DNA of 64,000 bases from Candidatus Spongiisociaceae bacterium. GTDB taxonomy: Bacteria > Actinomycetota > Acidimicrobiia > Spongiisociales > Spongiisociaceae. Every line of letters starts with the position of its first letter. Position 1 is the stretch's first letter. The translations under genes and the position numbers were made by a program. The notes under the pieces were generated by a model. It was not told the origin of the DNA and did no database searches. It was given only the letters and a program-made list of their open reading frames with translations. Shown here piece after piece: positions 22,226 to 62,632 of the stretch. The DNA lies in the NCBI GenBank assembly GCA_965243835.1, contig OZ251578.1:732854-796853 (forward strand), read 5' to 3'.

Positions 22226-22239
22226 TTTCGGAGATTCCT

Positions 22240-23745: not shown

Positions 23746-23769
23746 AATTTAATATGCTGTTGGGCCGGG

Positions 23770-24612: not shown

Positions 24613-24623
24613 TATCTTCCTCC
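24575..24623. repeat. direct repeat copy A (hydrolase RBS plus first 12 codons)
   Basis: gccgtctggacgatggccgcccgAatgatgttAgCcatt..cttcctcc aligns with 26287-26336. The first 23 nt are identical; beyond that I count 3 substitutions and one 2/3 nt difference by eye. Confidence 0.85.
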
Positions 24624-24934
24624 GTTTTTTCCTGCATAGTATCTTTTATTTGCAACGAAACAATATTGGATACGGGGGTCATAATATTCCCGGTGAGTAG
24701 TAGCCACTGATAGATACCCTCTACCCCTTCCCATGCCGACAGCACCTTCCTTAGTCCGCTAGGATCGAGACTAATCTGTTGGTGAGACTTGCCGTCTCTC
24801 ACGATGGGATCTCTAAGAGAAGCGAGCGCCGTCAACGGATCTTTCCGTATCCTCTCCCTTAGGTCTCTACTGTCAGAAAGGGACATCGTTTTTAGTATGT
24901 CGGCTTGCCTGTCAATCAGGTTATCTTCTGTCAT
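24605..24934 (-). CDS. hypothetical protein (cassette gene 2)
   Basis: 109 aa ORF with a strong GAGGAG Shine-Dalgarno 6-7 nt upstream, in an AT-richer region. Its last codons run into direct repeat A. No motif recognised. Confidence 0.5.
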   Translation of the reverse strand: MTEDNLIDRQADILKTMSLSDSRDLRERIRKDPLTALASLRDPIVRDGKSHQQISLDPSGLRKVLSAWEGVEGIYQWLLLTGNIMTPVSNIVSLQIKDTMQEKTEEDNG

Positions 24935-24960
24935 ACTTTGTTCTCCTCTTAAGTGTTAAG

Positions 24961-40854: not shown

Positions 40855-40879
40855 CCGTTTGTCGCCGGCGGGTGGTAAA

Positions 40880-42103
40880 ATGTCGGATATGAGACGCACC
40901 ATCACCCTTGTTTTGGCGGTCAGCCTGCTTTCGCTGGGCGGGGCCGCTTCCGCGCAAACTCCCCCCGCGGAGTTTTCCGACGTCCCCGCCGACCATGCCC
41001 GCAAGGCGGACATCGAGTACGCGGTAGCCCGGGGATGGCTGACCGGCTTCGACGACGGCACTTTCCAACCGGAGCGGGTCCTCACCCTCGCCGAAATAGT
41101 CGACTTGGTGAACCGGATTTTCGACGATGTGTCCGCAGCGTCCGAGGAGGGCGTCAGCCGGTTGGATATGGCCTTGTTCCTGCAACATGGCAACCAGGCT
41201 TTGACCGACCCGGCGGCCCCCTCCGCAACCGCTCCCGAATTCAGCGATTGGCCCCCCGCCGCCCATGAGGGACATGAGGATGCGGACGCGTCGGTGGCTT
41301 ACGTTGCCGCCCGCGGCTGGTTCCGCGGCTACCCCGACGGGACTTTCCGAGCGGAGCGCGCCATCACCGACCGTCAGACGGCGGCCGTGCTGGAGAGGGC
41401 TTTCCCGCAGGGTTTGAGTCGGGCGGAAATGGCCGCCTACGTCCTGCATGGCAACCGGGCGGTGATCGCGCACGAGGCCTCCCGCGCCTGGGACTTAGTA
41501 AGCGAGGCCGGCACGATCGCGCAAGACGCCTGGGCCGCGGTGTGCGATGACCTGTCGGGCCCGAATCCCATGTTCAACTTTCCTCATATAATCGCCGGCT
41601 ATACCCTCGAGGCCGCCGCCGAAGATGCTTTGGCCGATGCCTGGAGGGCGGATGTCGACTTCTGGGAAACCGCCGCCGACCCCACCCCGGAAGAGGAGGA
41701 GGCCCTGCTAACCGCCCAGGCGGCCGCCGTTGCCTGGGATGCGTCCGCGGATGCGGAACGGGGGTTGGCTGCCTCCGTGGTGGAGGATTTGACCACCGAG
41801 GAGGGCCGCCAAGCCGCAACCGAGGCGGCGTGGGCGGCCCGGGCGGCGGAGAAAACGGCTTGGGATGCGGCCCGGGATGCCACGGCCGCGGGCGCGGCCG
41901 CCGAGGCCAGGGCCGAGCCGTCGGTGCGGGAGGCGTGGGAGACCGCGGCGGAGAAAGCGGAGGAGGCGGTGGCCGCTTGGGATGAGTTTACGATCCTCAA
42001 TTTGGCCGCCGCCTGCCAAAACTGGGTCGACGCCTGGACCATTTGGAAAGACTGGGCGGCGGCGATGTCGATCGCCAACGACGCCTTGGCCGCCGTCGCC
42101 TGA
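40880..42103 (+). CDS. secreted protein: two SLH-like domains plus an Ala/Glu/Trp-rich helical region with recurrent AW(D/E/A) motif
   Basis: Signal peptide ...GGAASAQ. SLH patterns FSDVPADHARKADIEYAVARGWLTGFDDGTFQPE and ASVAYVAARGWFRGYPDGTFRAE. C-terminus ...NWVDAWTIWKDWAAAMSIANDALAAVA. Confidence 0.7.
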   Translation: MSDMRRTITLVLAVSLLSLGGAASAQTPPAEFSDVPADHARKADIEYAVARGWLTGFDDGTFQPERVLTLAEIVDLVNRIFDDVSAASEEGVSRLDMALFLQHGNQALTDPAAPSATAPEFSDWPPAAHEGHEDADASVAYVAARGWFRGYPDGTFRAERAITDRQTAAVLERAFPQGLSRAEMAAYVLHGNRAVIAHEASRAWDLVSEAGTIAQDAWAAVCDDLSGPNPMFNFPHIIAGYTLEAAAEDALADAWRADVDFWETAADPTPEEEEALLTAQAAAVAWDASADAERGLAASVVEDLTTEEGRQAATEAAWAARAAEKTAWDAARDATAAGAAAEARAEPSVREAWETAAEKAEEAVAAWDEFTILNLAAACQNWVDAWTIWKDWAAAMSIANDALAAVA

Positions 42104-42213
42104 TATTTTCCCTCCTCCGAATTCCCGCTCTCCCGGGGGTTCCGGACAACCGGGCGGTTTTGGGGAAGGATGGAATTCCCGCGTTTTGAGGCGGGGAGGT
42201 GTAAGATAAGAAT

Positions 42214-43464
42214 ATGAGACGTACGCTCGTCGCTGTCATTGTGTTCGGCTTGGCGTCGCTGGGCGCGCCCGCTTCCGCGCAAACCGCCGCTACCGATTTC
42301 ACTACGGATTTTCCCGACGTCCCCGACGATCATCCGCGGAAGGCGGATATTGAACACGCGGCATCCCGCGGCTGGTTCCGGGGATACGGGGATGGGACTT
42401 TCAGGCCCAACCAGATCATCACTTCCTCCGAAATAGTCATCGTGGTAAGCCGGGTGTTCGCGGCCGCGTCCGGGGGGGAAGTCACCCGGTTGGATGCGGC
42501 CTTGTTCATGCAACACGGAAACCGGGCGTTGGATGATCCCGCCTTGCCGATCGTCTTCGCTCCCGACTTCAGCGACTGGCCTCCCTCCGAGGAACGCCGG
42601 GTAAATGAAGAAGTGGCTCAATCGGTCGCGTACGGCGCCGTCCGGGGGTGGTTTAAGGGTTATGTCGATGGAACTTTTCGCCCCGATGAGGCCATAACCG
42701 CCGGCCAAGTGGCCAAGGTCGTCACCCGGGCTTTCCCGAACGGTTTCAGCCGGGCGGCGATGACGACCTTCCTCCGCCATGCAAACCAGGCGATGATCTC
42801 CCATCAGGCTTCCCGCGCTTGGGACCGGGTGGAAAGTTCCTATGTGGCCACCCAGACCGCGTGGCGCGACACCTGCACCGCCTGGACCTCCTATCGGCCG
42901 GACGACAATTTGGCGGAGCAGGCTTGGAACGCCGAAACCGCCGCCTTCGTCGACACCGCCGACGCTTGGAGGGCGGAGGCGGCCTTTTGGGAAACCATAG
43001 ACGACCGCAGTCGGCTGGAGAGGGAGGCCCTAAGCACGGCGCTGGCCGCCGCCGCCGCTTGGGACGCCGCGGCGGAAGCCAAACCGTCCTGGGACCAAAC
43101 CGAGTACGACGGTTACGAGGCCATAGGCGAGGTTTTGGACGACGCCTTGGCCGTGGCCACCGCCGACCGGGAGGCGGAAATGACGGCCTGGAACGCATCC
43201 CGGGACGCGGTGCGCGCCTCTGATTTGGCCGAACAAGCCCGCGCTTCGATAGTGCTGACCGAAGTCGAGCAAGCCGCGGCCCAGGCTTGGGACAGTGCGG
43301 TGGGGGCGGTGGAAGAGGCGGTTCGGGTCTGGAATTCCTTCGCCGTGGTGGAGGAACGCACCCGCCGGGAATCCTGTCAGGACTGGGATGAGGCGTGGGT
43401 CGCCTGGGAGGACTGGGCGAGGGCGATGGCGGAGGCCAACGACGCCTTGGCCGTAGGCGCCTGA
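42214..43464 (+). CDS. secreted protein, paralog of 40880..42103 (two SLH-like domains plus AW-motif helical region)
   Basis: Same architecture as its paralog. C-terminus ...DWDEAWVAWEDWARAMAEANDALAVGA. Confidence 0.7.
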   Translation: MRRTLVAVIVFGLASLGAPASAQTAATDFTTDFPDVPDDHPRKADIEHAASRGWFRGYGDGTFRPNQIITSSEIVIVVSRVFAAASGGEVTRLDAALFMQHGNRALDDPALPIVFAPDFSDWPPSEERRVNEEVAQSVAYGAVRGWFKGYVDGTFRPDEAITAGQVAKVVTRAFPNGFSRAAMTTFLRHANQAMISHQASRAWDRVESSYVATQTAWRDTCTAWTSYRPDDNLAEQAWNAETAAFVDTADAWRAEAAFWETIDDRSRLEREALSTALAAAAAWDAAAEAKPSWDQTEYDGYEAIGEVLDDALAVATADREAEMTAWNASRDAVRASDLAEQARASIVLTEVEQAAAQAWDSAVGAVEEAVRVWNSFAVVEERTRRESCQDWDEAWVAWEDWARAMAEANDALAVGA

Positions 43465-50560: not shown

Positions 50561-50899
50561 GTCGTTCTTACGATAGTGTAGGTTGCCCCGCTTCCAGTTC
50601 CCGTCAGGCGGTGACGCATCTGGCTTTCGATGACTACTCACCTGTTGCAAAGCGAAGAAGCGGAAAGGGAGGCATAGGCGACCTTCGTAGAAGCGATCTA
50701 CATTGTCACACCTGACGATCATTTACCCGCTGGTGAAGTTGGCGGGGGCGGAACAAAGCAGGTCGTCGGGCCGGAGCGCCACGGCGTTGGTTGCCCGGAT
50801 TCTCCCGGCGATGCGGGGAAGTAACACTCTGAACCGGAGACGGCCCGCCGCGCCGCCGCTCTCCCTTGGCGTCGCTCGCTTCCCCTCCGAGAGAGGCGG

Positions 50900-52213
50900 T
50901 CAGGGGGCGGTGGCGCGCACCCCCCACCATGTCGACCATTCGGAGGGATGGCATTCGGTGATGAAATGGAGATCGCCCAAAGCCGGGTTCCGCCAGGGGA
51001 TGATGCACCTGGCCTCCGAGGGCGGCTCTACCTGTTGGAAGGTGAGGGAGCGGAAGGGATGCATGGGCACATTCTCCCTGTAGCCGTTTTCGCGACTGGG
51101 TGGTTCATTACGGACGGTCACTTGTCCACTGCTGAAGTCGTCGGGGGCGGTCCTGGTCAGGATGGGAAAGGCCGCTCTCGGCGACCTGGCCTCGAAACTT
51201 CTGCCGCGGTAGGGACTTTCTCCTTTATACATATGAAGCGTTTGAGGGATTTGCAACCATTCGTTCTCCCCAGAGATGGTGTGCAGGTCTACGCTGATAC
51301 CTATATCGATGGGTTTGGGCTTGACCGGGACGGGACCATCGGGATCGGCGATATAAGCGGCGAAGAGCGGAGTGTCGCCTTCTTCATCGGAGCCGGGATG
51401 AACAAACCAGTGGACCACCACATCCCGTTCATCGTAGGGCACCTCCGGCACCGGTTGCGGTGGGATGGTGACCGTCGGGCCGCGGGTGGTGGTAGTGGTC
51501 GGCGCGGTGGTGGTCGTGGTGGTAGTGGTCGGGACGGGGGGTCGCTCCGCAACCGACTGCCAGGGTATTTTCACCTCCGCCAATAGTCTTCCGTTCGCCG
51601 GGCCGCCGGGGCGGTATTCCGTTACCCGCACCGTTCCCATGGTCAGCTCGGCGAACCAGGCCAGCGGCGTGGTGTAGCGGGAGGCGGCGGTGGGGAAGGG
51701 GAGGTTGAGCGTCTGCCCGCCGTTGAACTCGATCCGGTAGGTCACCGGCGGGGAGCATGGAGTTACCAGGAAACGGATCTGCGCGGGAGGCTGGGCGGCG
51801 GCCGAGGTGCGTTCCGCCGCTCCGAGCGGCCAGCCGCACTGGGAGGCGCCGGCCGGGGCGGTGGTGAGGGGGATGGTGGCGGGGGCGGCCGTGGTTGCCG
51901 GGGGCGGCGTATCGGTCAGGGAAGGGAGGCCTCCGTACATTACTTGCGCCCAGTCGGCCCGCGTCCAAACATCGTATCGGTCATACAGCCGCTCCGCCAC
52001 CTTGATGAACTGCCCCTCCGAGAGTTCGTCATCGGGGCGCATATTGCCGTCCGGGAAGCCTTGGAACAGGCCCTCCGTTTTGGCGTAGCGGATGGCGTCT
52101 ATCCGCCGGTGGTCGTCCGGGACGTCGGGGAACCATCCTTCGGCGGCCCAGGCGCCCCCTCCGGCGAGTACGGCGGCGGTGAGTATCAGGGCGGCGGCGG
52201 TGCGGAGTTTCAT
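50900..52213 (-). CDS. secreted envelope protein A (SLH-like module, poly-Thr linker, variable C-terminal domain)
   Basis: Signal peptide MKLRTAAALILTAAVLAGGGAWA, then EGWFPDVPDDHRRIDAIRYAKTEGLFQGFPDGNMRPDD and T8/T5 runs. ATG at 52213 is preceded by GGAAGGAAAA and upstream module copy 1. Confidence 0.7.
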   Translation of the reverse strand: MKLRTAAALILTAAVLAGGGAWAAEGWFPDVPDDHRRIDAIRYAKTEGLFQGFPDGNMRPDDELSEGQFIKVAERLYDRYDVWTRADWAQVMYGGLPSLTDTPPPATTAAPATIPLTTAPAGASQCGWPLGAAERTSAAAQPPAQIRFLVTPCSPPVTYRIEFNGGQTLNLPFPTAASRYTTPLAWFAELTMGTVRVTEYRPGGPANGRLLAEVKIPWQSVAERPPVPTTTTTTTTAPTTTTTRGPTVTIPPQPVPEVPYDERDVVVHWFVHPGSDEEGDTPLFAAYIADPDGPVPVKPKPIDIGISVDLHTISGENEWLQIPQTLHMYKGESPYRGRSFEARSPRAAFPILTRTAPDDFSSGQVTVRNEPPSRENGYRENVPMHPFRSLTFQQVEPPSEARCIIPWRNPALGDLHFITECHPSEWSTWWGVRATAP

Positions 52214-52232
52214 AGTTGTGTTTTCCTTCCGG

Positions 52233-52349
52233 GTAGATGTTGGCAAAAACGCTACCCCCCCCCCCGTTTTGTCAAATTGAGATCGTTCACGTCGAGGTTC
52301 CGAGGGCGGGCGGGGGACCAAATTGGGCTTTGCGCTGGGATTATGCGGG
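52233..52349 (-). promoter_or_regulatory. conserved upstream module copy 1 (TTGACA at 52270-52275, G11 at 52255-52265, TAGCGT at 52249-52254)
   Basis: Minus-strand reading: CAATTTGACAAAAC-G11-TAGCGTTTTTGCCAACATCTAC. Shared with the copies at 54081, 58486 and 59828. Confidence 0.5.
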
Positions 52350-52592
52350 CGAGGCTGGGCGACGGCCGAGGTGCGTTCCGCCGCTCCGAGCGGCTAGCCG
52401 CACCGAGAGACGCCGGCCGGGGCGGTGGTGAGGGGGATGGTGGCGGGGGCGGCCGTGGTCGCCGGGGGCGGCGTATCGGTCAGGGAAGGGAGGCCTCCGT
52501 ACATTACTTGCGCCCAGTCGGCCCGCGTCCAAACATCGTATCGGTCATACAGCCGCTCCGCCACCTTGATGAACTGCCCCTCCGAGAGTTCG
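52345..52592 (-). pseudogene. truncated internal copy of envelope protein gene A (about codons 62-143)
   Basis: Aligns with 51783-52028 with about 8 mismatches and a 2 nt indel (by eye). An in-frame stop replaces GASQCGW (GVSRCG*). It has no signal peptide or start of its own family type. Confidence 0.75.
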
Positions 52593-52750
52593 ACGGGGGG
52601 AAGCGGGGAAGCGAGAGGGGCGGACATCCGGGGAGGAGGGGGGACGGGCCGGACGCGGGAGGGCGGGGGGGATGGGGTTTTTGCGGGGGCGGCGAGACGG
52701 CGGGGCACCGGTTCTTTCCGGGTTTCCCCCTCCCCGCCGCCTCCCAGGTT

Positions 52751-54061
52751 TTATTCGGCGGCGGGGGCGTTGGCCCGCACTCCCCACCAGGCGGCCCACT
52801 CGGAGGGGCGGCATTCGGGGCGGTACCGCAAACTCCAGGTTTTTCGCAAACCGGATGTGGACGAAGACCAGGGGTTGAGGAACGCCGCGACGCATTCGGC
52901 GGCGGGGGGTTGCGCTTCGACGAACGTGACGCTGCGGAAGGGATGCGGCGGCACTTCCCGCCCGCCTTTTATTTTGGGTTCGGCGAGACGCAACCGTATG
53001 CTCTCCCAGTCGGCGGGCACCGTCCAGGTGCGTATAGGGAAAGCGGCGGTCGACGAACTCGATCCGTACAACGAGAACCCGGTGTCCTCCCGCCTCTCCC
53101 CCACTTCACTGCTGGTAAATACCTCCAGACGGAAGAACAAACTGGCGTAGGGCATGTCGAGGGGGATGGGCCCGTCGGGGTCGGCCACATAGACCGAAAC
53201 GAACGAGAAGTCGCCCGGTTCCGCCCTGTGCCCGAAGTAGTGGATTATCACATCCCGCTGATCGTAGGGCACTTCCGGCACCGGTAGGGGCGGGATGGTG
53301 ACCGTCGGCGGCCTGGTGGTGGTCGTGGTCGGTGCCGGCAAGGTCGTAGTCGTGGTCGTGGTTGTGGTCGTGGTGGGTGCGGGGGGACGGGAAGCGGCCG
53401 ACTGCCAGGGTATCTTCGTCTCGCCCAGGAGCTCCCCGTCCGCCGGGCCGCCGGGGCGGTATTCCGTCACCCGCACCGTTCCCATCGTGAGGTCGGCGAA
53501 CCAGGCCAGCGGCGTCGTGTGCCGGGCGGCGGAGGTGGGGAAGGGGAGGTTGAGGGTTTGCCCGCCGTTGAACTCGATCCGGTAGGTAACTGGAGGGGAA
53601 CAGGGGGTTACCAGGAAACGGATTTGCGCCGGGGGGCTGGGGGCGGCGGTGATGCGTTCCGCCGCTCCGAGCGGCCACCCGCACGAACCGCTCGCCGGAA
53701 CCGGGGGAACGGTAGCGGCCGGCGGGCCCGGGGGGGCTGGCGGGGGCGGGGGCGGTGATCCGCTCAGGGAGGGGAGGCCGCCGTACATTACTTGCGCCCA
53801 GTCGGCCCGCGTCCAAACATCGTATCGGTCATACAGCCGCTCCGCCACCTTGATGAACTGCCCCTCCGAGAGTTCGTCATCGGGGCGCAGATTGCCGTCC
53901 GGGAAGCCTTGGAACAGGCCCTCCGTTTTGGCGTAGCGGATGGCGTCTATCCGCCGGTGGTCGTCCGGGACGTCGGGGAACCATCCTTCGGCGGCCCAGG
54001 CGCCGCCTCCGGCGAGTACGGCGGCGGTGAGTATCAGGGCGGCGGCGGTGCGGAGTTTCAT
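52751..54061 (-). CDS. secreted envelope protein B (paralog of A with divergent C-terminal third)
   Basis: The first ~95 aa are virtually identical to protein A. Middle region is collinear, the poly-Thr run is longer (T11), and the C-terminal ~170 aa are strongly diverged but end in the shared C(H/R)PSEW..WWGVRA motif. Confidence 0.7.
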   Translation of the reverse strand: MKLRTAAALILTAAVLAGGGAWAAEGWFPDVPDDHRRIDAIRYAKTEGLFQGFPDGNLRPDDELSEGQFIKVAERLYDRYDVWTRADWAQVMYGGLPSLSGSPPPPPPAPPGPPAATVPPVPASGSCGWPLGAAERITAAPSPPAQIRFLVTPCSPPVTYRIEFNGGQTLNLPFPTSAARHTTPLAWFADLTMGTVRVTEYRPGGPADGELLGETKIPWQSAASRPPAPTTTTTTTTTTTLPAPTTTTTRPPTVTIPPLPVPEVPYDQRDVIIHYFGHRAEPGDFSFVSVYVADPDGPIPLDMPYASLFFRLEVFTSSEVGERREDTGFSLYGSSSSTAAFPIRTWTVPADWESIRLRLAEPKIKGGREVPPHPFRSVTFVEAQPPAAECVAAFLNPWSSSTSGLRKTWSLRYRPECRPSEWAAWWGVRANAPAAE

Positions 54062-54080
54062 CGTTGTGTTTTCCTTCCGG

Positions 54081-54157
54081 GTGGATGTTGGCAAAAACGC
54101 TACCCCCCCCCCCGTTTTGTCAAATTGAGATCGTTCGCGATGGGGGTCCGACGGCGG
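54081..54157 (-). promoter_or_regulatory. conserved upstream module copy 2 (TTGACA at 54118-54123, G11 at 54103-54113, TAGCGT at 54097-54102)
   Basis: Identical in core to copy 1. The distal part of the module is replaced by unrelated sequence. Confidence 0.5.
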
Positions 54158-54190
54158 GAAGGTTGCCAGCGGGGGCCCGACGGTTTTGAT

Positions 54191-54219
54191 TTGACATCCT
54201 TTTTTAAATAATGTAGAAT
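54191..54219 (+). promoter_or_regulatory. near-consensus promoter TTGACA-17-TAGAAT in an AT-rich tract upstream of the HNH/DUF222 gene
   Basis: TTGACA at 54191-54196, a 17 nt spacer, TAGAAT at 54214-54219, about 45 nt before the ATG at 54265. Confidence 0.4.
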
Positions 54220-54264
54220 ATAGGAATAAATAATAATCAATCCGGGTTATACCCTATACAAGAA

Positions 54265-55581
54265 ATGTCACACCCCCCCGGTAAGGTGAACACCATGCAA
54301 CACAACCGCCAAACCCCGCCCGCAAACCCGGAGCAAACCTGCGCCCGGTCCGTAACGGCCACCGCCGTTGCGGTAGCCGATCTGCGCCAATTGCTGGGAG
54401 CGGGTTCTTCCCGCACCCGGCTGGGTCAAGTGGCGGAGGCGGTGAAGCAGATGGAAGCCTTGGTGTCTTCCCTGAAATGCGACTTGGCGGGACAGCTCAA
54501 CCGCACCGACGGCGGATCCGGGACGGGCGAGGTGTTACGGGATCAGTTGGGGGTTACCAACCATCAGGCCAAGCACCTGTCGCAGGTGGCCCGCCGCCTG
54601 GAGGAGATGCCCAACACCCGCGCCAAACTAGAGGCGGGGGAGATCACTTTGCAGAACGCCTCGGCGCTGGCCGCGGCCGCAAGCGAGTGCGGATCCCGGA
54701 AGGTGGATCAAAACGAAGGGTTGCTGAACGAGGCGGCGGCCGCCAACCCGGATGATTTCCGCAAGCGGTCCCGCCGGTGGGCCAACGCCCACAGTCCCGA
54801 TCGGGGCGAAGAGTTGTTGGAGCGGCAACGCCGGCGGCGCAAAGCGCACCTGTTTTGGAGCCGGGAATTGGAGATGGGGGTTCTGCGCGCCGAGTTGGAT
54901 TCCATAAGCTTCGGGCAAGTGCAACAAGCCCTCGATCAACACACCGACTTGCTGCGGAGGGACGACTCCGGCGGGGAAGTTCACCCCGATGATGTCCGCA
55001 CCGGCGACCAACGACGCGCCGATGCCTTGGTGGAGTTGTTAACCGGCCGCCGCGCCCACACCCTGGAGCCCCTTCCCGACGCCGGAGGCGCGGGTAAAGA
55101 CCCCACGCAGTTGGTGGTAGTAGCCGACTCGGGAGTGATAGACGGCTCCCGCCCGGACGGAAACTGCGAAATCCTGGGAACCGGACCCGTCCCGCCCTCG
55201 GTGCTGAGCAACCTGTCTCCCGACACTTCCGTGTGCGGGATCATCTTCAGCGGCAAAGGCCGAGTGTTGTGGCTGGGACGCAACCAACGCTTAGGCAACC
55301 AGGCCCAACGCTTGGCCGCGGCGGTACGGGACAAAGGATGCGTCAGGTGCGACGCCCCTGTTCACCGCACCGAGTTGCATCACCTGCGGGACTGGTACGA
55401 CGGCGGCCCCACCGACATCGACAACCTGGTCTCCCTATGCGGCCCCCACCACCGCGAACTCCAAGAACACAACCGGGAGTTGGTAAAAATTGGAAACAAG
55501 TGGCAAACCCGCCCCCGCACCGGCCCACCACTCCCCAAGCGCCGACCGGCCCGACCCCCCACCCGCGCCGCACCCCCCTGA
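54265..55581 (+). CDS. HNH endonuclease with DUF222 N-terminal domain (REP13E12-type)
   Basis: C-terminal CVRCDAPVHRTELHHLRDWYDGGPTDIDNLVSLCGPHH is an HNH motif. The N-terminal helical region is typical of actinobacterial DUF222 proteins. Confidence 0.85.
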   Translation: MSHPPGKVNTMQHNRQTPPANPEQTCARSVTATAVAVADLRQLLGAGSSRTRLGQVAEAVKQMEALVSSLKCDLAGQLNRTDGGSGTGEVLRDQLGVTNHQAKHLSQVARRLEEMPNTRAKLEAGEITLQNASALAAAASECGSRKVDQNEGLLNEAAAANPDDFRKRSRRWANAHSPDRGEELLERQRRRRKAHLFWSRELEMGVLRAELDSISFGQVQQALDQHTDLLRRDDSGGEVHPDDVRTGDQRRADALVELLTGRRAHTLEPLPDAGGAGKDPTQLVVVADSGVIDGSRPDGNCEILGTGPVPPSVLSNLSPDTSVCGIIFSGKGRVLWLGRNQRLGNQAQRLAAAVRDKGCVRCDAPVHRTELHHLRDWYDGGPTDIDNLVSLCGPHHRELQEHNRELVKIGNKWQTRPRTGPPLPKRRPARPPTRAAPP

Positions 55582-55775
55582 CAAACCAACCTCCCCACCC
55601 ATGGGTGTGGTGGTTGAGTATCCGTTTAGGCCACCGGAGAATCGTTTTTACCATCTTACGTTACTGGGAGGTATGGCCGGTTTGGTAGAGGACGGAGAAC
55701 TGGCTAGGTGTACACAGTCAGTAGGTTGGTTACAGTCTGGTACCAACCTAATTACCGCTTACGCCTTGAAGCCGC

Positions 55776-56294
55776 TTACCGGGTAGCGGTCTCGGCGACG
55801 CGTGCTTTGGCTTCTTCGGCAGATTTGGCTTCTTCAGAGGCTTTTTTAACGGTGTAGGCGACGGTGCCATAGGGGTCGTCGGCGTAGGCGGCGTAGGCGG
55901 CGCAAATGAAGGCGGCGGCTTGGGCGCAGGCGGCGGCGGCGAAGGCAACGGCTTTGTAGGTGGCTTTGACGCGGTCGGCGGCTTCATGGGCTTCGTAGGC
56001 GCGGGTGGCTATAGCGTCGGCGCGGTCGGCGGCACAACGGGCGGCTTTGGCGGCTTCGTAGGCGGCTTCGATGGCGCGATCGTATGTGCCAGCGGCGGCG
56101 TAGGTAGCGGCTTCGGAGACGCGGTCCTCGGCTTTTTTGGCGGCTTCGGCGGCTTCGGCGTAGGCGGCTTTGGCGTGGTCGGCAGCGAAGCTACCCTTGG
56201 TGTAGTCGGTTTGGATGGCGTCGCGGCCAGCTTTGGCGGCTTTGGCGGCGCGGCGGGCCATTTCTTTGGCGGTGGCTATAGCGTTGGCGGTCAT
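55776..56294 (-). CDS. Ala-rich helical protein, no signal peptide
   Basis: 172 aa ORF with a strong AAGGAGGA Shine-Dalgarno. Low-complexity A/E/K/Y composition (AAYAEAAEAAKKAE...). Last gene of a minus-strand cluster. Confidence 0.55.
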   Translation of the reverse strand: MTANAIATAKEMARRAAKAAKAGRDAIQTDYTKGSFAADHAKAAYAEAAEAAKKAEDRVSEAATYAAAGTYDRAIEAAYEAAKAARCAADRADAIATRAYEAHEAADRVKATYKAVAFAAAACAQAAAFICAAYAAYADDPYGTVAYTVKKASEEAKSAEEAKARVAETATR

Positions 56295-56310
56295 GGCGTT
56301 CCTCCTTTTT

Positions 56311-56943
56311 CTAGCAGTCTGTCATGAAGGCGAAGTCGGTTATAGATATTTCCATGACGAACGGTTCGGTGGTTTTTTCAAGTTGAATGTATCCGGCTAG
56401 GGGAGCGTCCGTAGCGGCTATCGCATCAAAGGTCTGTAGCCCGTCGGGTATATTCCCTAGCCGCATCCAACGGCATCCCGCCGGTAGTCGGTAGTGTCCG
56501 GGTTCAATATAACTATAATCATTATCGGTCCATGTGGTATTGTTGGGGTTATATCCGATAAAATATATATTATCCCCCGGAGACTCCAGTTCGCGGTAGC
56601 CTAGTGGATTTTCCCGTGATGGTCTTAGTCTTTCTTCGTTACCGGCTACTAGGAACGAGGCGAATTCGGCTCGGGTTATTCCTTCGTCAAACGCCCGCCA
56701 TAGCACACGGGTCATTTCGGAAGGGCTTATGTTCTGGTCGGGTTTATAGGTACCGTCCCCGTAGCCTATGAACCATCTTTGTTCAGCTACATAGTTGATG
56801 TTATCCAGATGGGGATTGTTAGCGGGGACATCGGAAAATTGTATCTGGGCGACTACCGGAACGGCCAGCAGTACGGCGGCGGCTACCGCTATAATCGTCC
56901 AACTAACGGCGGGTCTTCCCGGTCGGAGGCTAGGTCGTTTCAT
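56311..56943 (-). CDS. secreted protein: SLH-like module plus small C-terminal domain ending in Cys
   Basis: Signal peptide ...LAVPVVAQ then IQFSDVPANNPHLDNINYVAEQRWFIGYGDGTYKPDQNISPSEMTRVLWRAF. C-terminus ...CRWMRLGNIPDG...FDAIAATDAPLAGYIQLE...FMTDC. ATG at 56943 is preceded by GAAGGGAAA. Confidence 0.7.
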   Translation of the reverse strand: MKRPSLRPGRPAVSWTIIAVAAAVLLAVPVVAQIQFSDVPANNPHLDNINYVAEQRWFIGYGDGTYKPDQNISPSEMTRVLWRAFDEGITRAEFASFLVAGNEERLRPSRENPLGYRELESPGDNIYFIGYNPNNTTWTDNDYSYIEPGHYRLPAGCRWMRLGNIPDGLQTFDAIAATDAPLAGYIQLEKTTEPFVMEISITDFAFMTDC

Positions 56944-56966
56944 CGTATTTCCCTTCTTCGGTTCGT

Positions 56967-57671
56967 CTAACATTGTACCATGAAGGCGGTGTCGGTTGGT
57001 TCTATTCTAATAATATATGGTTGCCACGTGCTTTCAAGTTGAATGTGTCCGGCTAGGGGAGCGTCCGTAGCGGCTATCGTATCAAAGTTCTGTCCCCCTT
57101 CGGGTATATAACCTAACCGCATCCAACGACAGGCCTTGTCTACAGTACGATACCCCCACCCTCTATTATACACATGACAGGGATACCCGGGGGTGGTGGC
57201 AGCGCAATATCTTTCCGGCCCCTCGCCCCTTATTCGGATGCGTCCGGGTGAAATATAGTTCAATCCTTCCCTTCTTTCTTCGCCGGGCTTTTCAACTATG
57301 TATAGACCCGTTCTGACTACGAGGTTTCGGTAATCGGGAGTTTCTTTTATTCTTTGTCGCCATTCGTTTCCGGCGGTCATAAACGACGCGAATTCCGCCC
57401 GTGTTATCCCTTCTTCAAACGCCCGCGTTAGCACATTAGTCATCTGGGCGGGGGTTATTTTCTGGTCGGGTTTATAGGTACCGTCCCGATAGCCCAAGAA
57501 CCATCTTTCACCGGCTACATAGTTGATATCATCCCGGTGGGGGTTATCGCCAGCGACATCGGAAAATTGTATCTGGGCGAAGACGGGGACGGCTAGCAAG
57601 ACAGCGGCGGCTACGGCTATGGCCGTCCAACGGACGGGTCTGCTCGCTCGGAAGGCTCGTTTAATCTTCAT
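56967..57671 (-). CDS. secreted protein, paralog of 56311..56943
   Basis: Same signal peptide and SLH module, same C-terminal CRWMRLGYIPEG...FDTIAATDAPLAGHIQLE...FMVQC. ATG at 57671 is preceded by GAAAGGGA. Confidence 0.7.
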   Translation of the reverse strand: MKIKRAFRASRPVRWTAIAVAAAVLLAVPVFAQIQFSDVAGDNPHRDDINYVAGERWFLGYRDGTYKPDQKITPAQMTNVLTRAFEEGITRAEFASFMTAGNEWRQRIKETPDYRNLVVRTGLYIVEKPGEERREGLNYISPGRIRIRGEGPERYCAATTPGYPCHVYNRGWGYRTVDKACRWMRLGYIPEGGQNFDTIAATDAPLAGHIQLESTWQPYIIRIEPTDTAFMVQC

Positions 57672-57715
57672 CAGGTTCCCTTTCAATGGTTAACCGTCAT
57701 ATGGTACGGGTCGGG

Positions 57716-57982
57716 CTATCCCCTCCATCGTGCCATGGCAGCACCAAAACACATAATCCCAAGCACTTCCACGACTCGGCTCAAGTTTGCCCATAAAGAG
57801 GGTGGAGCTTCGTCTACGGAGGTAAATAAATATAGGACGATCGATCCGATCACCAAAGAGAAACCCAACCAAGCAAACACCTTGTCAATGGGGGCTTCGC
57901 CCTTTCGCTCGTTGGTGCAACCACTGTCCGTGCTGCCTTGGCAGTTGCACGAGTCGGACTTTGCGTTAATTTTGATCTTCAT
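57716..57982 (-). CDS. small membrane protein with Cys-rich N-terminus
   Basis: 88 aa. AGGAGGA Shine-Dalgarno 6 nt upstream of the ATG at 57982. N-terminus SDSCNCQGSTDSGC followed by two hydrophobic segments. Confidence 0.5.
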   Translation of the reverse strand: MKIKINAKSDSCNCQGSTDSGCTNERKGEAPIDKVFAWLGFSLVIGSIVLYLFTSVDEAPPSLWANLSRVVEVLGIMCFGAAMARWRG

Positions 57983-58463
57983 TGTCGTCCTCCTTGGGGC
58001 GGCTTGATTGAATTGTCGATGGGAATATGCCAAATCTTGATAAGACCGTGTTCGTCTTGTCGCGGATTACTTGCCAGGCGGGTACCTGGCGGGTCCGGAG
58101 CTCGCTTGGTGCGAGGCGGCATCCGTTTGCGGCTTTTATGGAGGGGGGATGGTTATCCTCAAGATCGCCCTGCCGGGTGGTTGCGGGTACTGTGGCGATG
58201 TTTCGGGTGTCGCAGTGGGGGTGGGCGGGTTCTGAGGCGGCCCGGCGGCTAGCGCGCATAAGGGCGGACGCGTCGGTGCTTGTGGCACCGATCGGTAAGG
58301 CTCTGGAGGACGACGGCTTCTCGGTAGGGAACCATCCCTCGCTACCGCAACGGCGGTTTGGGGGTTGCCGGGTTGCGCGGGGGAGCCGGGTTTGGGCATC
58401 GGTCGCCATAACGCCTGCGACCGACGTTACGGTCGATGCTACGGCGGCGGGTGGCGGTTTCAT
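57966..58463 (-). CDS. hypothetical protein or degenerate family member downstream of module copy 3
   Basis: ATG at 58463 is preceded by GGAAAGGA and the module. The N-terminus MKPPPAAVAS...GSEGWFP echoes MKLRTAA...AEGWFP of proteins A and B, but the remainder has odd composition. It may be a decayed gene. Confidence 0.3.
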   Translation of the reverse strand: MKPPPAAVASTVTSVAGVMATDAQTRLPRATRQPPNRRCGSEGWFPTEKPSSSRALPIGATSTDASALMRASRRAASEPAHPHCDTRNIATVPATTRQGDLEDNHPPSIKAANGCRLAPSELRTRQVPAWQVIRDKTNTVLSRFGIFPSTIQSSRPKEDDNEDQN

Positions 58464-58485
58464 CGGTCCTTTCCTGTCGCTCTTA

Positions 58486-58644
58486 GTGGATGTTGGCGAT
58501 AACGCTACCCCCCCCCCCGTTTTGTCAAATTGAGATCGTCTGCGTCGGGGATCCGGGGGTGGGCAGGTGACCGAAATTGGGCTATATCCTGGGGTTATGC
58601 AGAATTTTGGGGGGGCGGGCGTCCTCTCTTTTTTCTTGTTCTGA
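58486..58644 (-). promoter_or_regulatory. conserved upstream module copy 3 (TTGACA at 58523-58528, G11 at 58508-58518, TAGCGT at 58502-58507)
   Basis: Full-length version of the module, collinear with copy 4 over about 155 bp. Confidence 0.5.
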
Positions 58645-58947
58645 TCCGGGCGGGAACCATTTTTTCTGAGGCCAAGCGGGGCGCTTCGCGCTGGGCGCGT
58701 CCTCCCGTTTGCGGACTGCTTGGTGGGTGCGGGTGGGTCGGGCGGCGGGGCCGGGGAGGGTGATTTACGGCTCTGTGCGAGGAGCGGTGCGGGTGAAGGA
58801 GGGGTAACAAATCGCGGGTGGCTGACAGAGGTAGAGGGGTCCCGGGTTGGTGCGTGCGGAAGCGGGAGAGCCGTTATAGCTATAGCGCGGAAGGGGAGGC
58901 CGGGTTGGTGGACAGGTCTTCCCATCCTGGTACTTCCCCGGGGCGGG

Positions 58948-59064
58948 TCACCCCGTAGGCGGAGTACACAAGCCCTCCACGACCGGCTCCACTGCTACCA
59001 CAACCTCCGAGCCCACATAGGCCTTGGAGGAAAACCACCAACCGGCAGACTGTCAACAACCTAG
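58948..59064 (+). pseudogene. C-terminal remnant of an IS481/IS3-type integrase (transposase)
   Basis: SPRRRSTQALHDRLHCYHNLRAHIGLGGKPPTGRLSTT* parallels the ...WLHHYNHHRPHTALGG(Q/K)PPISRL C-terminus of DDE integrases. No catalytic core is visible upstream. Confidence 0.45.
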
Positions 59065-59126
59065 TGGCCATTTACACCCAGACCACCATCAAATCGGTAC
59101 TGGCTGTAACGTTAGGCTTCCACCAG

Positions 59127-59795
59127 CTATCCTGAGAAGTGTTGATTATATAAGGTCATACCCCGCCATCCGCCGTAGAAGCCGATGCCGCCAACGATAA
59201 TCCAAATTATTATCCCGAATATCGGGAAGCCGCCGGGTACCGGGAAGCCGTCCCCCGCTATGAGAAGACGGGAAAGCATTCCGGTTAGCGGGGCTTCCGC
59301 CGCCGATACGGCCGCCGATGCCGCTACCGCTTCCGCTTCCGCCGCCGCCGCTACCTCCGATACTATTTCCGGGTTCGTCGCCGCCATCGCCGCCTGCATC
59401 GCCTTTTCCGCTTCCGTTATCGCCGCCGTTTTCGCTATCTCTTCCGCCGCTTCCGCCGATGCCGCTACCGCTTCCGCTACCGCCGCTTCCGCTACCGCCA
59501 CGATATTCGGGTTCGCCGCCGTTTCCCATGCGGCTTCTTCCGCTACCTCCTCCACTATTTCCGGTTGGGCTATCTCCATTGACGGCAGGCTTCTCCTCCG
59601 TTCCAGTGCTACCGCTTCCGCCGCCACTTCCGCTACCGCTTCCCCCACCGTCGCCGCTTCCGCTTCCGCCGCCGGGCTTAGCCACCATTCATCCGGTTGC
59701 AAAGGGGAAAATATTCCGTAAAGATAAATTACCAGTCCGGCAAAGAACAGCAGGCCGCCGCCCGCTATTCCCCCGGTTATCCACTTTCGTTCCAT
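59127..59795 (-). CDS. membrane protein with N- and C-terminal TM segments and an Ala/Glu-rich repeat core
   Basis: MERKWITGGIAGGGLLFFAGLVIYLY..., repeated (A/E)AVAE/AAEA units with NP(N/E)IV punctuation, and C-terminus FPIFGIIIWIIVGGIGFYGGW. The alternative ATG at 59819 adds 8 aa. Confidence 0.55.
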   Translation of the reverse strand: MERKWITGGIAGGGLLFFAGLVIYLYGIFSPLQPDEWWLSPAAEAEAATVGEAVAEVAAEAVALERRRSLPSMEIAQPEIVEEVAEEAAWETAANPNIVAVAEAAVAEAVAASAEAAEEIAKTAAITEAEKAMQAAMAATNPEIVSEVAAAAEAEAVAASAAVSAAEAPLTGMLSRLLIAGDGFPVPGGFPIFGIIIWIIVGGIGFYGGWRGMTLYNQHFSG

Positions 59796-59827
59796 TCGGA
59801 AATCCCTTTCTATCCGCATCCGTCTTA

Positions 59828-59979
59828 GTGGATGTTGGCGAAAACGCTACCCCCCCCGTTTTGTCAAATTGAGATCGTCCGCGACGGGGGTCCGGAGAGG
59901 GCGGGGGGACCGAAATTGGGCTATATGCTGGGATTATGCGGGATTTTGGGGGGCGGGCGCGCTCTCTTTTTCTTGTTCC
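59828..59979 (-). promoter_or_regulatory. conserved upstream module copy 4 (TTGACA at 59862-59867, G8 at 59850-59857, TAGCGT at 59844-59849)
   Basis: Same module with a shorter G run. It abuts the 3' end of topA. Confidence 0.5.
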
Positions 59980-59998
59980 GAGGCGGGGGTCGCTGGGG

Positions 59999-62632
59999 TT
60001 AGTTGGAGCTTCTCCGGCGGGGGGTGCGGGGTTTGGGGGGCCACTTGCCGTCGGCTTTCATTTTTTGGCGACGGGACTCCAATAGTTCCGCGGCTCGTTG
60101 TTGGGTCAGGCCCTCCACCGTGTCGTTTTTGCGCAGGCTGGCGTTTACTACCCCGTCGGTTACGTAGAGTCCGAAGCGGCCGTCTTTGACCAGCACCGTG
60201 CCGCCCGACTCGGGGTCGGGGCCCAACTCTTTCAGCGGGGGGGCGGCGCTTCGGCCCTGGCCGCGGGCCGGTTTGGGTTGTTTGAACAGGGCGACCGCCT
60301 CCTCCAGGGTTATGTCCAGGATTTGCCGTTCGGAAACCAGGTTGCGGGTTTCGGAACCCATCATTAAATAAGGGCCGTAGCGTCCGTTGTTGGCGATGAT
60401 CGCCTCCCCGGTGTCGGGGTGGGGGCCCACCTCCCGGGGGATGGACAGAAGGCGCAGGGCGTCGTCCAGGCTCAACGCGTCCAGTTCCATATCCTTGAAC
60501 AGGGAGGCCCGCCGGGGTTTGCTTTTGGCTCCTTTGGCGCCGGCGCCGCCCTCCCCCAGTTGCACGTAGGGTCCGTAGCGTCCGGTCAGGCCCAGCACCA
60601 CCTCGCCGGTGTCGGGGTCGGTGCCCAGGATTTTCTGGGAGGGGGCCTCCAGCAGTTCCGCCGCCCGCTCCAAGGTGAGTTCGTCCGGGGGCAGGTCGGG
60701 GGGGATGGAAGCCGAGGCGTCCCCCCGGGTCAGGAAAGGCCCGTAGCGTCCCACCCTGGCGTACACCGACCGCCCCATTTCGTCGTCGCCGATGTGGAGG
60801 TTCAGTTTCTCGTAGTCGATGCGGCCCGTGTTCTCCTCCGAAACCATCGTCCGCAACCCGGGGGCGCCGTTGCCGTAGAAGAAGCGGCGCAACCAGGGGG
60901 CCCGGCTCTCCTCGCCCCGGGCGATCCGGTCCAGGTCGTCTTCCATGCGGGCCGTGAAATCCAAATCCACCAACTCCTGGAAGTAATTTTCCAAAAGGGC
61001 CACGGTGGTGAAAGCCGTAAAAGAGGGGACCAGGGCCGCCTCCTTTTTCCAGACGTATTCGCGGTCGATGATGCGGCTGATGATGCTGGCGTAAGTGGAG
61101 GGGCGTCCGATGCCCCGCTCCTCCAGTTCTTTCACCAACGTGGCCTCCGTGAATCGGGCGGGGGGTTTGGTGCGATGGTGCTTGGCCGTAACTTCCCGGG
61201 CGGTGGTCGGATCTCCCTCCGCCAGGTCGGGCAACAGGCGCTCCCGATCCTCCAGTTCCGCCTCCGGGTCGTCGGCGCCCGCCACGTAGGCCCGCAGAAA
61301 ACCGGGGAAGGTGATGGTCTTTCCGGAAGCGGTGAACTCCAACTCCGTGCCCCGGGCGGTCGTCCCGGCCAGGACCATTTTGGTGGTGGAGCCGCGGGCG
61401 GAGGCCATCTGCGAGGCCAGGGTGCGGTTCCAAATCAGTTCGTACACCGCCTGCTGATCCTTGTCCCCGATGTCCGCCGCCGCTTGCCGGGGGTCGCGCC
61501 ACCTCTCCCCGGCGGGGCGGATCGCTTCGTGGGCCTCTTGGGCGTTTTTGGCCTTGGTCGCGTAGTTGCGGGGCTTGGCGGACAGGTATTCGGAACCGAA
61601 TCGTTCCCGGATGATGCTGCGGGCCTGCTCCACCGCCCCCGGGGCCAGGGTGGTGCTGTCGGTGCGCATATAGGTGATGAACCCTTTTTCGTACAAGCCC
61701 TGGGCGGCCCGCATGGTGCGGGCGGCGTTGAAGCGCCGTTTGCGCGAGGCCTCCTGTTGCAAGGTGGAGGTGCGGAAAGGGGGGTAGGGGTTGCGGGTGT
61801 AGGGTTTTCTTTCCACCGACCGCACCGGAAAGTCCCGCCCCTGCGCCTCCTCGGCCAAGGCCGCGGCCCGGTCGGCGTCCAACTGCGCCGCCCGGGGGTT
61901 GGTCATCTCCCCCTGCGCGTTGAAATCCTTGCCGCCGACGGGGGCGGCCCCGTCGATGGAGGACAGGCGGGCGGTCAGGGACTCATCGCTCGGGGCGGCG
62001 AACACCCCCTCCAAACTCCACCAGTCCGCCGACCGGTGCGCCATGCGCGCCCGCTCCCGTTGCACCACCATCCGCACCGCCACGCTCTGCACCCGCCCCG
62101 CCGACAGGCCGGACTTGACCTTGGCCCACAGCACCGGCGACACGCCCCACCCCACCAGCCGGTCCAGGGTGCGGCGGGCTTCCTGGGCGTCCACCAGGTC
62201 CTGGTCGATGGCGCGGGGGTTGGCCAGGGAGGCCCGGATGGCTTCCCTGGTTATCTCGTGAAACACCATCCGGCGCACCGGCACCTTGGGTTGCAAAACC
62301 TCCACCAGGTGCCAGGCTATGGCCTCCCCCTCCCGGTCCTCGTCGGTGGCCAGGTACAACTCCGAGGCCTCTTTGAGCAGGCCTTTCAGTTCCCTGATGG
62401 TTTTCCGGCTGTTTTCCGACACCACGTACAAGGGCTCGAAATCCCGCTCCACGTTGACGCCCCAGTCCTTGGCCCACGACTGGTCGCGGTAGCTTTCCGG
62501 GATGTCCTTTTTGGAGCCGGGCAGATCGCGCACATGCCCCACCGAGGACGCCACCCGGTAGTCCGGGCCCAGAAAGCGGCCGATGGTGCGGGCCTTGGTC
62601 GGCGACTCGACGATCAACAGTGGTTTGGACAT
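59999..62632 (-). CDS. topA: DNA topoisomerase I (type IA), actinobacterial type with basic repeat-containing C-terminal domain
   Basis: TOPRIM N-terminus LLIVESPTKARTIGRFLG and active-site region GFITYMRTDS. C-terminal repeats GRYGPY... end in a Lys/Arg tail. GAAGGAG Shine-Dalgarno upstream. Confidence 0.95.
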   Translation of the reverse strand: MSKPLLIVESPTKARTIGRFLGPDYRVASSVGHVRDLPGSKKDIPESYRDQSWAKDWGVNVERDFEPLYVVSENSRKTIRELKGLLKEASELYLATDEDREGEAIAWHLVEVLQPKVPVRRMVFHEITREAIRASLANPRAIDQDLVDAQEARRTLDRLVGWGVSPVLWAKVKSGLSAGRVQSVAVRMVVQRERARMAHRSADWWSLEGVFAAPSDESLTARLSSIDGAAPVGGKDFNAQGEMTNPRAAQLDADRAAALAEEAQGRDFPVRSVERKPYTRNPYPPFRTSTLQQEASRKRRFNAARTMRAAQGLYEKGFITYMRTDSTTLAPGAVEQARSIIRERFGSEYLSAKPRNYATKAKNAQEAHEAIRPAGERWRDPRQAAADIGDKDQQAVYELIWNRTLASQMASARGSTTKMVLAGTTARGTELEFTASGKTITFPGFLRAYVAGADDPEAELEDRERLLPDLAEGDPTTAREVTAKHHRTKPPARFTEATLVKELEERGIGRPSTYASIISRIIDREYVWKKEAALVPSFTAFTTVALLENYFQELVDLDFTARMEDDLDRIARGEESRAPWLRRFFYGNGAPGLRTMVSEENTGRIDYEKLNLHIGDDEMGRSVYARVGRYGPFLTRGDASASIPPDLPPDELTLERAAELLEAPSQKILGTDPDTGEVVLGLTGRYGPYVQLGEGGAGAKGAKSKPRRASLFKDMELDALSLDDALRLLSIPREVGPHPDTGEAIIANNGRYGPYLMMGSETRNLVSERQILDITLEEAVALFKQPKPARGQGRSAAPPLKELGPDPESGGTVLVKDGRFGLYVTDGVVNASLRKNDTVEGLTQQRAAELLESRRQKMKADGKWPPKPRTPRRRSSN

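Follow-up and report, generated by a model that had tools for sequence, protein, structure and literature searches.

A 64,000-nt stretch of contig OZ251578.1 from a Candidatus Spongiisociaceae bacterium (assembly GCA_965243835.1, positions 732,854 to 796,853 of the forward strand; hereafter the window) contains four copies of a promoter-like cassette in which an uninterrupted run of G residues separates a perfect TTGACA hexamer from a TAGCGT hexamer, upstream of genes for secreted proteins with S-layer homology (SLH) domains and for membrane proteins. The anatomy of this element, its copy number, its pattern of conservation and the exclusive tie of long G runs to the SLH family can be read directly from the DNA. 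The explanation that we favor, tentatively, is that of a lineage-specific sigma-A-type promoter cassette with a selected pure G tract, acting as a slippage-prone contingency promoter in which G11 is the prevailing and probably the expressing state; switching by slippage at the cassette is plausible but unproven.

In the mechanism proposed, the four sites would be copies of one cassette, made up of TTGACA, AAA(C/T), the uninterrupted G tract, TAGCGT(T) and, after these, some 30-45 nt of leader that includes a Shine-Dalgarno (SD) sequence. The cassette would have spread by duplication before genes for secreted SLH-domain and membrane proteins, and these genes lie in a fast-evolving tandem array beside topA. 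Replication slippage of one to a few G would alter the geometry of the -35 and -10 hexamers, and with the changed geometry some cells of the population would express single envelope genes less or not at all; the copy with eight G would have the look of a shifted allele. Use of the cassette as a promoter, the start of transcription, slippage within populations and an effect of tract length on expression are what we infer from the features described below.

The cassette in the window

An earlier note on this DNA had reported four minus-strand copies with G runs of 11, 11, 11 and 8 and hexamer spacers of 15, 15, 15 and 12 nt, and both a reading of positions 50800-60200 and pattern searches bear this out in full. 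Each copy has the form GATCTCAATTTGACAAAAC-Gn-TAGCGTT(T/A)T(T/C)GCCAACATC, with n = 11, 11, 11 and 8, and the copies are referred to here as c1 to c4.

52249..52275, minus strand: c1 core; TTGACA 52270-52275, AAAC 52266-52269, G11 52255-52265, TAGCGT 52249-52254; 15-nt spacer
54097..54123, minus strand: c2 core; TTGACA 54118-54123, AAAC 54114-54117, G11 54103-54113, TAGCGT 54097-54102; 15-nt spacer
58502..58528, minus strand: c3 core; TTGACA 58523-58528, AAAC 58519-58522, G11 58508-58518, TAGCGT 58502-58507; 15-nt spacer
59844..59867, minus strand: c4 core; TTGACA 59862-59867, AAAC 59858-59861, G8 59850-59857, TAGCGT 59844-59849; 12-nt spacer
52285..52349, minus strand: conserved part upstream of c1; GCATAATCCCAG...CCCAATTTGGTC
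58538..58644, minus strand: conserved part upstream of c3; A-rich aaaaaagagag, a C7 run, GCATAACCCCAGG...CCCAATTTCGGTC
59877..59979, minus strand: conserved part upstream of c4; 87% identical to its c3 counterpart

Pattern searches gave four occurrences each of the 18-nt left core and of the 19-nt right block, against 0.04 expected from dinucleotide shuffles, and in an alignment of the four copies the 21-nt block ACGATCTCAATTTGACAAAAC and TAGCGTT are invariant. The -35 hexamer is perfect and the -10 hexamer is of the TANNNT type, preceded by G. Each copy is followed, as the note had it, by a purine-rich SD sequence and an ATG, at a measured 35-48 nt from the -10 (35, 35, 38 and 48 nt for c1 to c4). 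The anatomy is indeed that of a promoter with a homopolymer spacer serving secreted or envelope proteins, four of the products having a Pfam SLH domain. The conservation farther upstream that the note had ascribed to the module holds for c1, c3 and c4, which share a further block, GCATAATCCCAG...CCCAATTTCGGTC, with an A-rich stretch before it, and fails for c2, which consists of the core only, its upstream part being replaced by the AT-rich divergent promoter region of a gene with DUF222 and HNH domains. G/C runs of at least 8 are confined in the window to the four cassette sites and 7318-7325, fewer than in shuffled sequence.

Inside the upstream parts of c3 and c4, terminator-like hairpins with a T run (GGGGGGGCGGGCGTCCTCTC-TTTTTT) can be read on the plus strand at 58609-58628 and 59948-59967, that is, on the strand opposite the SLH genes, and the A-rich/C-rich block is kept in relatives. 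Such hairpins may serve to end antisense or read-in transcription; alternatively, the conserved block may read as a terminator only by chance.

Conservation of the tract in related genomes

A protein search with the c1 product gave 35 relatives, which are 93-41% identical and come without exception from metagenome assemblies of ENA or Logan, and the DNA around eleven of these was retrieved for comparison. The cassette proved to be present in related genomes, as the note had anticipated, with 13 more copies on six metagenome contigs; together with those of the window these make a set of 17 copies from seven assemblies, which amount to perhaps 7-8 independent observations, since paralogous copies within a genome are partly homogenised.

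Contigs L022, L024, L025 and L026: 10 cassette copies, all exactly G11
Contig L037 (Logan; c1 protein differs by 5 residues): 1 cassette copy, G11
Contig L027 (ortholog 47% identical): 2 tandem cassette copies, G12 and G11+T

The first four contigs are syntenic with the window, with topA, small genes, the DUF222/HNH gene and then one to three tandem SLH paralogs, and since their topA is 95% identical to that of the window at the nucleotide level, they would represent close relatives near the species boundary. Between the window and these relatives the SLH proteins share only 62-81% of their amino acids, compared with 96% for TopA. In L027 no cassette precedes the c1 ortholog itself, and both copies stand before a different gene, encoding a 1247-aa SLH/FG-GAP protein; they lie 293 bp apart (L027:19382-19707) and read TTGACAAAAT-G11-T-TAGCGTT and TTGACAAAAT-G12-TAGCGTT, with a 16-nt spacer in both. 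Each L027 copy also has its own conserved GGGGCCGGGTTTGNGGATTGAC upstream block and overlapping TTGACTTGACA.

Over the 17 copies the tract is G11 in fifteen, G12 in one and G8 in one, and the spacer is 15 nt in thirteen, 16 nt in two, 14 nt in one and 12 nt in one, none having 17-18 nt. A lack of tract-length variation among related strains, which the note had named as evidence against its view, is thus largely what the consensus sequences show, the G8, G12 and G11+T variants being the exceptions. The copy with the 14-nt spacer, L024:4972, has lost one A from AAAC and kept G11. The two hexamers are the same in all 17 copies. Among the 14 copies of the close clade, from which substitutions in the tract columns were counted, variation affects 84 of the 90 columns upstream and 20 of the 25 downstream, whereas TTGACAAA and TAGCGTT are invariant and the G columns have zero substitutions, their sole change being the 3-nt deletion in c4. 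The tracts have no interrupting base in any of the 14 clade copies and are of a length (about 8 or more) at which slippage can be expected, and because no base substitution has entered them, run purity is conserved, which neither spacing nor GC content alone would require. The comparison clearly points to selection on the G tract for both purity and length, and on any reading G11 would be a state held by selection or by mutational equilibrium.

In a census of G/C runs in 230 kb of non-redundant sequence of this lineage, the distribution ends at 8 and is followed by an isolated spike.

Run length and number of runs: 6, 311; 7, 87; 8, 10; 9, 0; 10, 0; 11, 14; 12, 1; 13, 1

All runs of at least 9 lie at loci of this SLH family, and such confinement of long G runs is the signature that would be expected of contingency loci.

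A neutral G run, merely carried along when the promoter was duplicated and too young to have changed since, is distinctly improbable. Within one genome the 40 nt downstream of the -10 are 95-100% identical between copies, consistent with recent duplication or gene conversion. However, pairwise identity between the flanks of c1-type and those of c3-type copies is only 50-80%, so that these two paralog types would be older than the split of the compared genomes, and yet both have the pure G11; L027, with an ortholog 47% identical, also keeps the core, and homopolymers of such length mutate far faster than the flanking bases (PMC9187656).

Still less probable, to the point of being nearly dismissed, is the view that the element is a cis-acting RNA (a 5' leader of riboswitch-like type) or that its homopolymer is an artefact of assembly. 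A weak AAAAC/GTTTT symmetry surrounds the tract, the bases after the -10 are conserved, and homopolymers are error-prone in sequencing. Nevertheless, Rfam gave no match at the gathering threshold and a single irrelevant one at a permissive threshold (E = 0.59), and RNAalifold on the cassette copies returned a consensus of -5.4 kcal/mol with 0 compensatory pairs; as no Rfam family fits and no covarying structure is seen, a cis-acting RNA element was rejected, and the additional RNA-level control suggested by the note finds no support in these searches. The symmetry, TTGACAAAAC/GTTTTTGCCAA, could also be taken for a dimeric operator or a hairpin, a candidate that was set aside on finding that the right arm changes without compensation in c3, L024:4981, L026:4852 and L027. 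As for the mis-assembly of which the note had warned, independent ENA scaffolds and Logan unitig-based contigs and the closed genome to which the window belongs agree on G11, and it is unlikely.

Two Logan contigs start inside the cassette, L023 at G7 and L037 at TGACAAAAC, in both cases exactly one 31-mer before the first copy-specific base. These ends were considered as a sign of length heterogeneity and rejected, k=31 de Bruijn branching on the repeat being sufficient to explain them. The break point of L023 would imply a second cassette in the L022 strain, sharing TAGCGTTTTCGCCAACATCCACT, the sequence of the c4 type, with at least 8 G.

The more serious competitor to a contingency promoter is a tract of fixed length that is functional and not a switch, in which G11 would serve a co-regulated envelope regulon as a structural element or for recognition, and slippage would be an unwanted side effect removed by selection. 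The tract could be the site of a spacer-binding regulator, or it could form a rigid G.C segment of one turn which, combined with a short spacer, renders the promoter dependent on an activator or on supercoiling. This would account for the persistence of G11 in 15 of 17 copies despite 5% genome and 15-50% flank divergence, for the conservation of a non-canonical 15-nt spacing, for the retention of G11 in the copy with a 14-nt spacer, where run length is held more tightly than spacing, and for the conservation of further blocks, one upstream at -105 to -70 and one immediately behind the -10; such uniformity is also unlike the wide range of tract lengths in the Bordetella fim promoters (PMC1891110). 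On the other hand, if only binding or spacing counted there would be no reason to keep a pure run that is both costly and hypermutable; the tracts of L027 read G12 and G11+T; the gene behind the G8 copy is still intact; and no candidate regulator gene is linked to the SLH array in any locus compared. A fixed tract also leaves a G13 run inside an SLH coding sequence (below) unexplained, and because of this run and the upkeep of the costly homopolymer it is considered unlikely and is ranked second, after a contingency promoter.

Orthologs with other arrangements

In the remaining orthologs compared (L029-L036) the upstream regions are unrelated to the cassette, only L029:7914 having a decayed version. 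There (L029:7730-7913, the same in L030), before the gene for a 656-aa SLH protein, the sequence GGACAAAAAC-GGGG-aatgtgccatc-GGGGGG-cGAGCGT...CCACCCGGAAGG looks like a decayed cassette in which the tract is broken by 11 nt and both hexamers are altered.

The SLH ortholog of L031 (Logan SRR17504027), 68% identical, has no cassette; instead, a G13 run lies inside the coding sequence at 936-948, starting 23 nt after an ATG at 913 that is preceded by an AAGGGAG SD sequence, and the frame is open for 447 aa. This is the placement of an intragenic simple sequence repeat (SSR), a long homopolymer in 5' coding sequence where slips of +/-1 would shift the frame, and it makes the run a candidate site of translational phase variation on the same SLH gene family. 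The corresponding stretch of L032 contains interruptions (GAGGGGGCGGG), and the start codon there is shifted downstream. Long G runs of the SLH family therefore occupy two functional positions, the promoter spacer and the coding sequence, the latter of which would be a second and independent SSR placement on the family.

Spacing and other promoters of the same genomes

Judged by the canonical sigma-70/sigma-A definition used here (-35 TTGACA, -10 TANNNT, 16-18 nt apart), the cassette has the hexamers and lacks the spacing, which is 15 nt in 13 of 17 copies, and a consensus promoter scanner made no call at the cassette sites. The canonical promoters of the same genomes have spacers of 16-18 nt. 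One of them, already pointed out in the note for comparison and present as described, is kept in L022, L024, L025 and L026; the SLH genes at 40891 and 42215, two more in the window without the cassette, have promoters of another kind.

54191..54219, plus strand: near-consensus promoter TTGACA-17-TAGAAT of the divergent DUF222/HNH gene, in an AT-rich island back to back with c2
40860-40893 and 42190-42217, plus strand: leaderless -10-only promoters of the SLH genes at 40891 and 42215, with TAAAAT or TAAGAT 6-7 nt before the ATG and a G-rich stretch ahead of each

The SLH genes of this genome would thus appear to use two quite different promoter styles.

Some other promoter classes were considered on inspection. 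An ECF-type (extracytoplasmic function) promoter (AAC...CGT) was rejected, the spacing being 14-15 and not 16-17 and AAAAT variants occurring; a SigB/SigF-type promoter (GGGTA) is broken by the G11-T-TAGCGT copy of L027; and no GCCGATAA is present for a FliA/WhiG-type promoter. An extended -10 of the form TG-n-CAAAAT, with a start in the G run and reiterative transcription, is unlikely, half of the copies having CAAAAC without the essential final T.

The note had taken G11 to be sub-optimal, such that a gain of two or three G would bring the spacer to its optimum. In its full form this would make G11, at 15 nt, an OFF or weak state from which rare gains to 17-18 nt turn single loci ON while most members stay silent, much as in the Neisseria opa or Mycoplasma vlp families. 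Consistent with such an arrangement are the 16-18 nt of the canonical promoters in the same genomes, such as TTGACA-17-TAGAAT, the optimum of 17 nt at Treponema tp0126 and Neisseria porA (PMC7864442, PMC3639595), and the presence in each genome of several paralogous loci. Drift would be expected of an unselected OFF state, however, and 15 of 17 copies are exactly G11 despite the divergence of their flanks, none being G13 or G14 and none reaching 17-18 nt; the L027 lineage arrives at 16 nt by two routes, one copy has 14, and all coding sequences are intact. We regard this version as improbable, and the note's premise of a sub-optimal G11 is not supported by the copies compared, in which the modal tract length is fixed and the spacer takes more than one value.

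Comparison with known homopolymer-controlled genes

To our knowledge, homopolymer-controlled promoters are known almost only from host-adapted pathogens (Neisseria, Bordetella, Treponema, Haemophilus, Mycoplasma). The porA promoter resembles the cassette in that an uninterrupted tract of about 11 G fills most of a sigma-70-type spacer ahead of a gene for a major surface protein. Expression is high at 11G, about 2-fold lower at 10G and about 13-fold lower at 9G (PMC3639595). Unlike the cassette, in which G11 gives 15 nt, porA reaches the optimum of 17 nt with its 11G; it occupies one locus, at a consensus length that varies from strain to strain, whereas the cassette occupies 3-5 loci per genome at a nearly invariant consensus length; and porA belongs to a host-adapted proteobacterium, the cassette to a high-GC actinobacterium.

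In Treponema pallidum, as with the cassette, poly-G tracts are found in the promoters of several genes for putative outer-membrane proteins (tp0126, tprL, tprE/G/J). That of tp0126 lies between the -35 and the -10 and is optimal at 17-nt spacing, and that of tprL has mostly 9 G in all strains and 7 to 11 within isolates (PMC7864442). The Treponema tracts do not belong to one duplicated cassette, and their variation was demonstrated by fragment analysis and reporters.

The closest architecture is that of Bordetella fim2, fim3, fimX and fimN, in which a homopolymer cassette (a 'fim box' and C-stretch) is repeated before paralogous envelope (fimbrial) genes. The fim promoters depend on the activator BvgA, whereas the cassette is without a known activator. 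Their tracts vary widely, while 15 of the 17 cassette tracts are identical: among strains the fim2 tract has 10-15 and the fim3 tract 13-18 residues, across species the values are 12, 20 and C9TC8, tract length affects transcription, and in a comparison of three close species 74% of the long tracts proved polymorphic (PMC1891110).

Among actinobacteria, the sortase-pilus genes of Bifidobacterium breve have a G10/G11 tract that controls surface structures and a strongly heterogeneous population despite a single reference length, a G11 tract being 37% G11 and 60% G12 in a single-colony culture (PMC9187656). The B. breve tract is intragenic and acts by frameshift, in contrast to the promoter-spacer tracts of the window; the G13 of L031 is of the B. 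breve, translational type. An intragenic repeat-mediated switch is also described for glpK of M. tuberculosis (bioRxiv 10.1101/717272). In the library searched, no paper combined S-layer homology, homopolymeric tracts and phase variation, and a search on promoters in Actinobacteria yielded, as judged by title and abstract, only intragenic or tandem-repeat cases.

Weighing a contingency promoter

That the cassette is a contingency promoter is favored by several lines of evidence. Tracts of 8, 11 and 12 G, with spacers that range over 12, 14, 15 and 16 nt, indicate that changes of tract and spacer have happened in evolution. The confinement of long G runs to the SLH family, the intragenic G13 of L031 and the precedents of porA, tp0126, tprL and the Bordetella fim genes point the same way, and in B. 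breve, itself an actinobacterium, a G11 tract is highly unstable (PMC9187656). The products are of the surface-exposed, fast-evolving kind, with an SLH domain and a signal peptide, a level of identity well below that of TopA (62-81% against 96%) and a variable copy number.

Several observations weigh against it. The consensus tract is far more uniform than those of fim2, fim3 and porA among strains (PMC1891110, PMC3639595). The modal spacer of 15 nt is shorter than the 16-18 nt of the canonical promoters found in these genomes, and with it the efficiency of G11 with a sigma-A holoenzyme that uses both hexamers is in doubt; in a phase-variable SSR promoter the prevailing or ON length would be expected to give a near-optimal 17 +/- 1 nt, and no cassette spacer is 17-18 nt. 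The -10-only leaderless promoters elsewhere may mean that the -35 and the spacer length matter less than assumed. Finally, copies within a genome are partly homogenised, with up to 100% identity in the downstream 40 nt. Because the tprL and B. breve tracts vary within isolates or cultures, a constant consensus length would nevertheless be compatible with switching, and by analogy with those cases it does not exclude it.

A broader proposal, possible but on the doubtful side, is that a free-living uncultured actinobacterial lineage has a small 'phasome' for SLH-anchored envelope proteins, with G-tract switches that lie in promoter spacers in the window clade and L027 and in coding sequence in L031, with phage or predation as the presumed pressure, and with pure G11 at 14-16 nt selected. 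If so, there would be a need of the polymerase, of an activator or of DNA structure for the homopolymer itself, which has not been described for promoters of the porA type. Homopolymer-spacer promoters as such are already known, and what is unusual here is the fixed G11 at 14-16-nt spacing. If a contingency promoter is the correct explanation, the logic of contingency loci would reach free-living high-GC bacteria as well as proteins of the S-layer type, themselves likely receptors for phage. The near-invariant G11 at 15-nt spacing is a puzzle of promoter geometry in Actinobacteria, and the cassette tracts are the sites of least reliable assembly and annotation in such genomes.

The reach of the cassette was also examined by DNA pattern. 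In a genome collection, AATTTGACAAAAC-N4-24-TAGCGTT gave only 21 single chance matches in unrelated taxa, the pattern being too strict for copies of the L027 type (GACTTGACAAAAT), and a cassette pattern had no match in scans of JGI metagenomes or in a viral scan.

Genes served and the surrounding locus

The genes behind the four copies, and a relic among them, are as follows.

50900..52213, minus strand: SLH-domain secreted protein, 437 aa, behind c1; Pfam SLH 28.8 bits
52358..52590, minus strand: remnant (relic) of a third SLH paralog in tandem; fragment from inside the gene, matching 51794-52030 at 96-100% identity, TGG changed to TAG
52751..54061, minus strand: SLH-domain secreted protein, 436 aa, paralog, behind c2; Pfam SLH 29.9 bits
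55776..58463, minus strand: gene string downstream of c3; five open reading frames (ORFs) listed
57966-58463, minus strand: doubtful 165-aa ORF, first after c3; no family match, odd composition
57716-57982, minus strand: 88-aa membrane protein in the c3 string
56967-57671, minus strand: SLH protein in the c3 string; Pfam SLH 21.7 bits
56311-56943, minus strand: SLH protein in the c3 string; Pfam SLH 24.1 bits
55776-56294, minus strand: Ala-rich 172-aa protein in the c3 string
59127..59795, minus strand: Ala/Glu-repeat membrane protein, 222 aa, without family, behind c4 (G8)

The SLH genes served encode an SLH domain and a signal peptide, and in four products the SLH score exceeds the Pfam gathering cut-off (PF00395, 20.8 bits), with a single SLH repeat detected in each. 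The gene string that the note had described as a five-gene cluster behind c3 is present, and its count is uncertain on account of the doubtful first ORF. The c1 and c2 proteins have one SLH repeat each by Pfam (residues 28-70), the usual number being three, followed by Thr/Pro-rich linkers and two domains without family; with a single repeat, anchoring might need oligomerisation.

The relic (about 240 bp) is joined directly to the upstream part of c1. Intact copies of the SLH array number one in L022, two in L024 and L025 and three in L026, and from these together with the relic it would appear that the array expands and contracts. The cassette c4, its gene (59127-59795) and about 480 nt of non-coding DNA (58645-59126) are absent from L024 (4821-4991) and L026 (4668-4862), in which topA is followed directly by a c3-type cassette. 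As c3 and c4 are sister copies (87-97% identical) and c4 is absent from these two relatives, c4 would be a lineage-specific duplication or insertion.

By Pfam, topoisomerase I lies upstream of c4 and the DUF222/HNH gene on the opposite strand, and the rest of the window consists of ordinary housekeeping genes. The TopA of the window is much closer to the mycobacterial enzymes than to the E. coli enzyme; this, the DUF222/HNH gene and the leaderless -10-only promoters of other genes support an actinobacterial origin without proving it. Two stretches, 22000-26000 and 56000-58000, have a low G+C content of 54-55%, against about 65% in the rest of the window; the former carries a gene for a Fic-domain protein (22240-23745) and the latter the two small SLH genes behind c3, and for both a foreign origin or a different constraint is conceivable.

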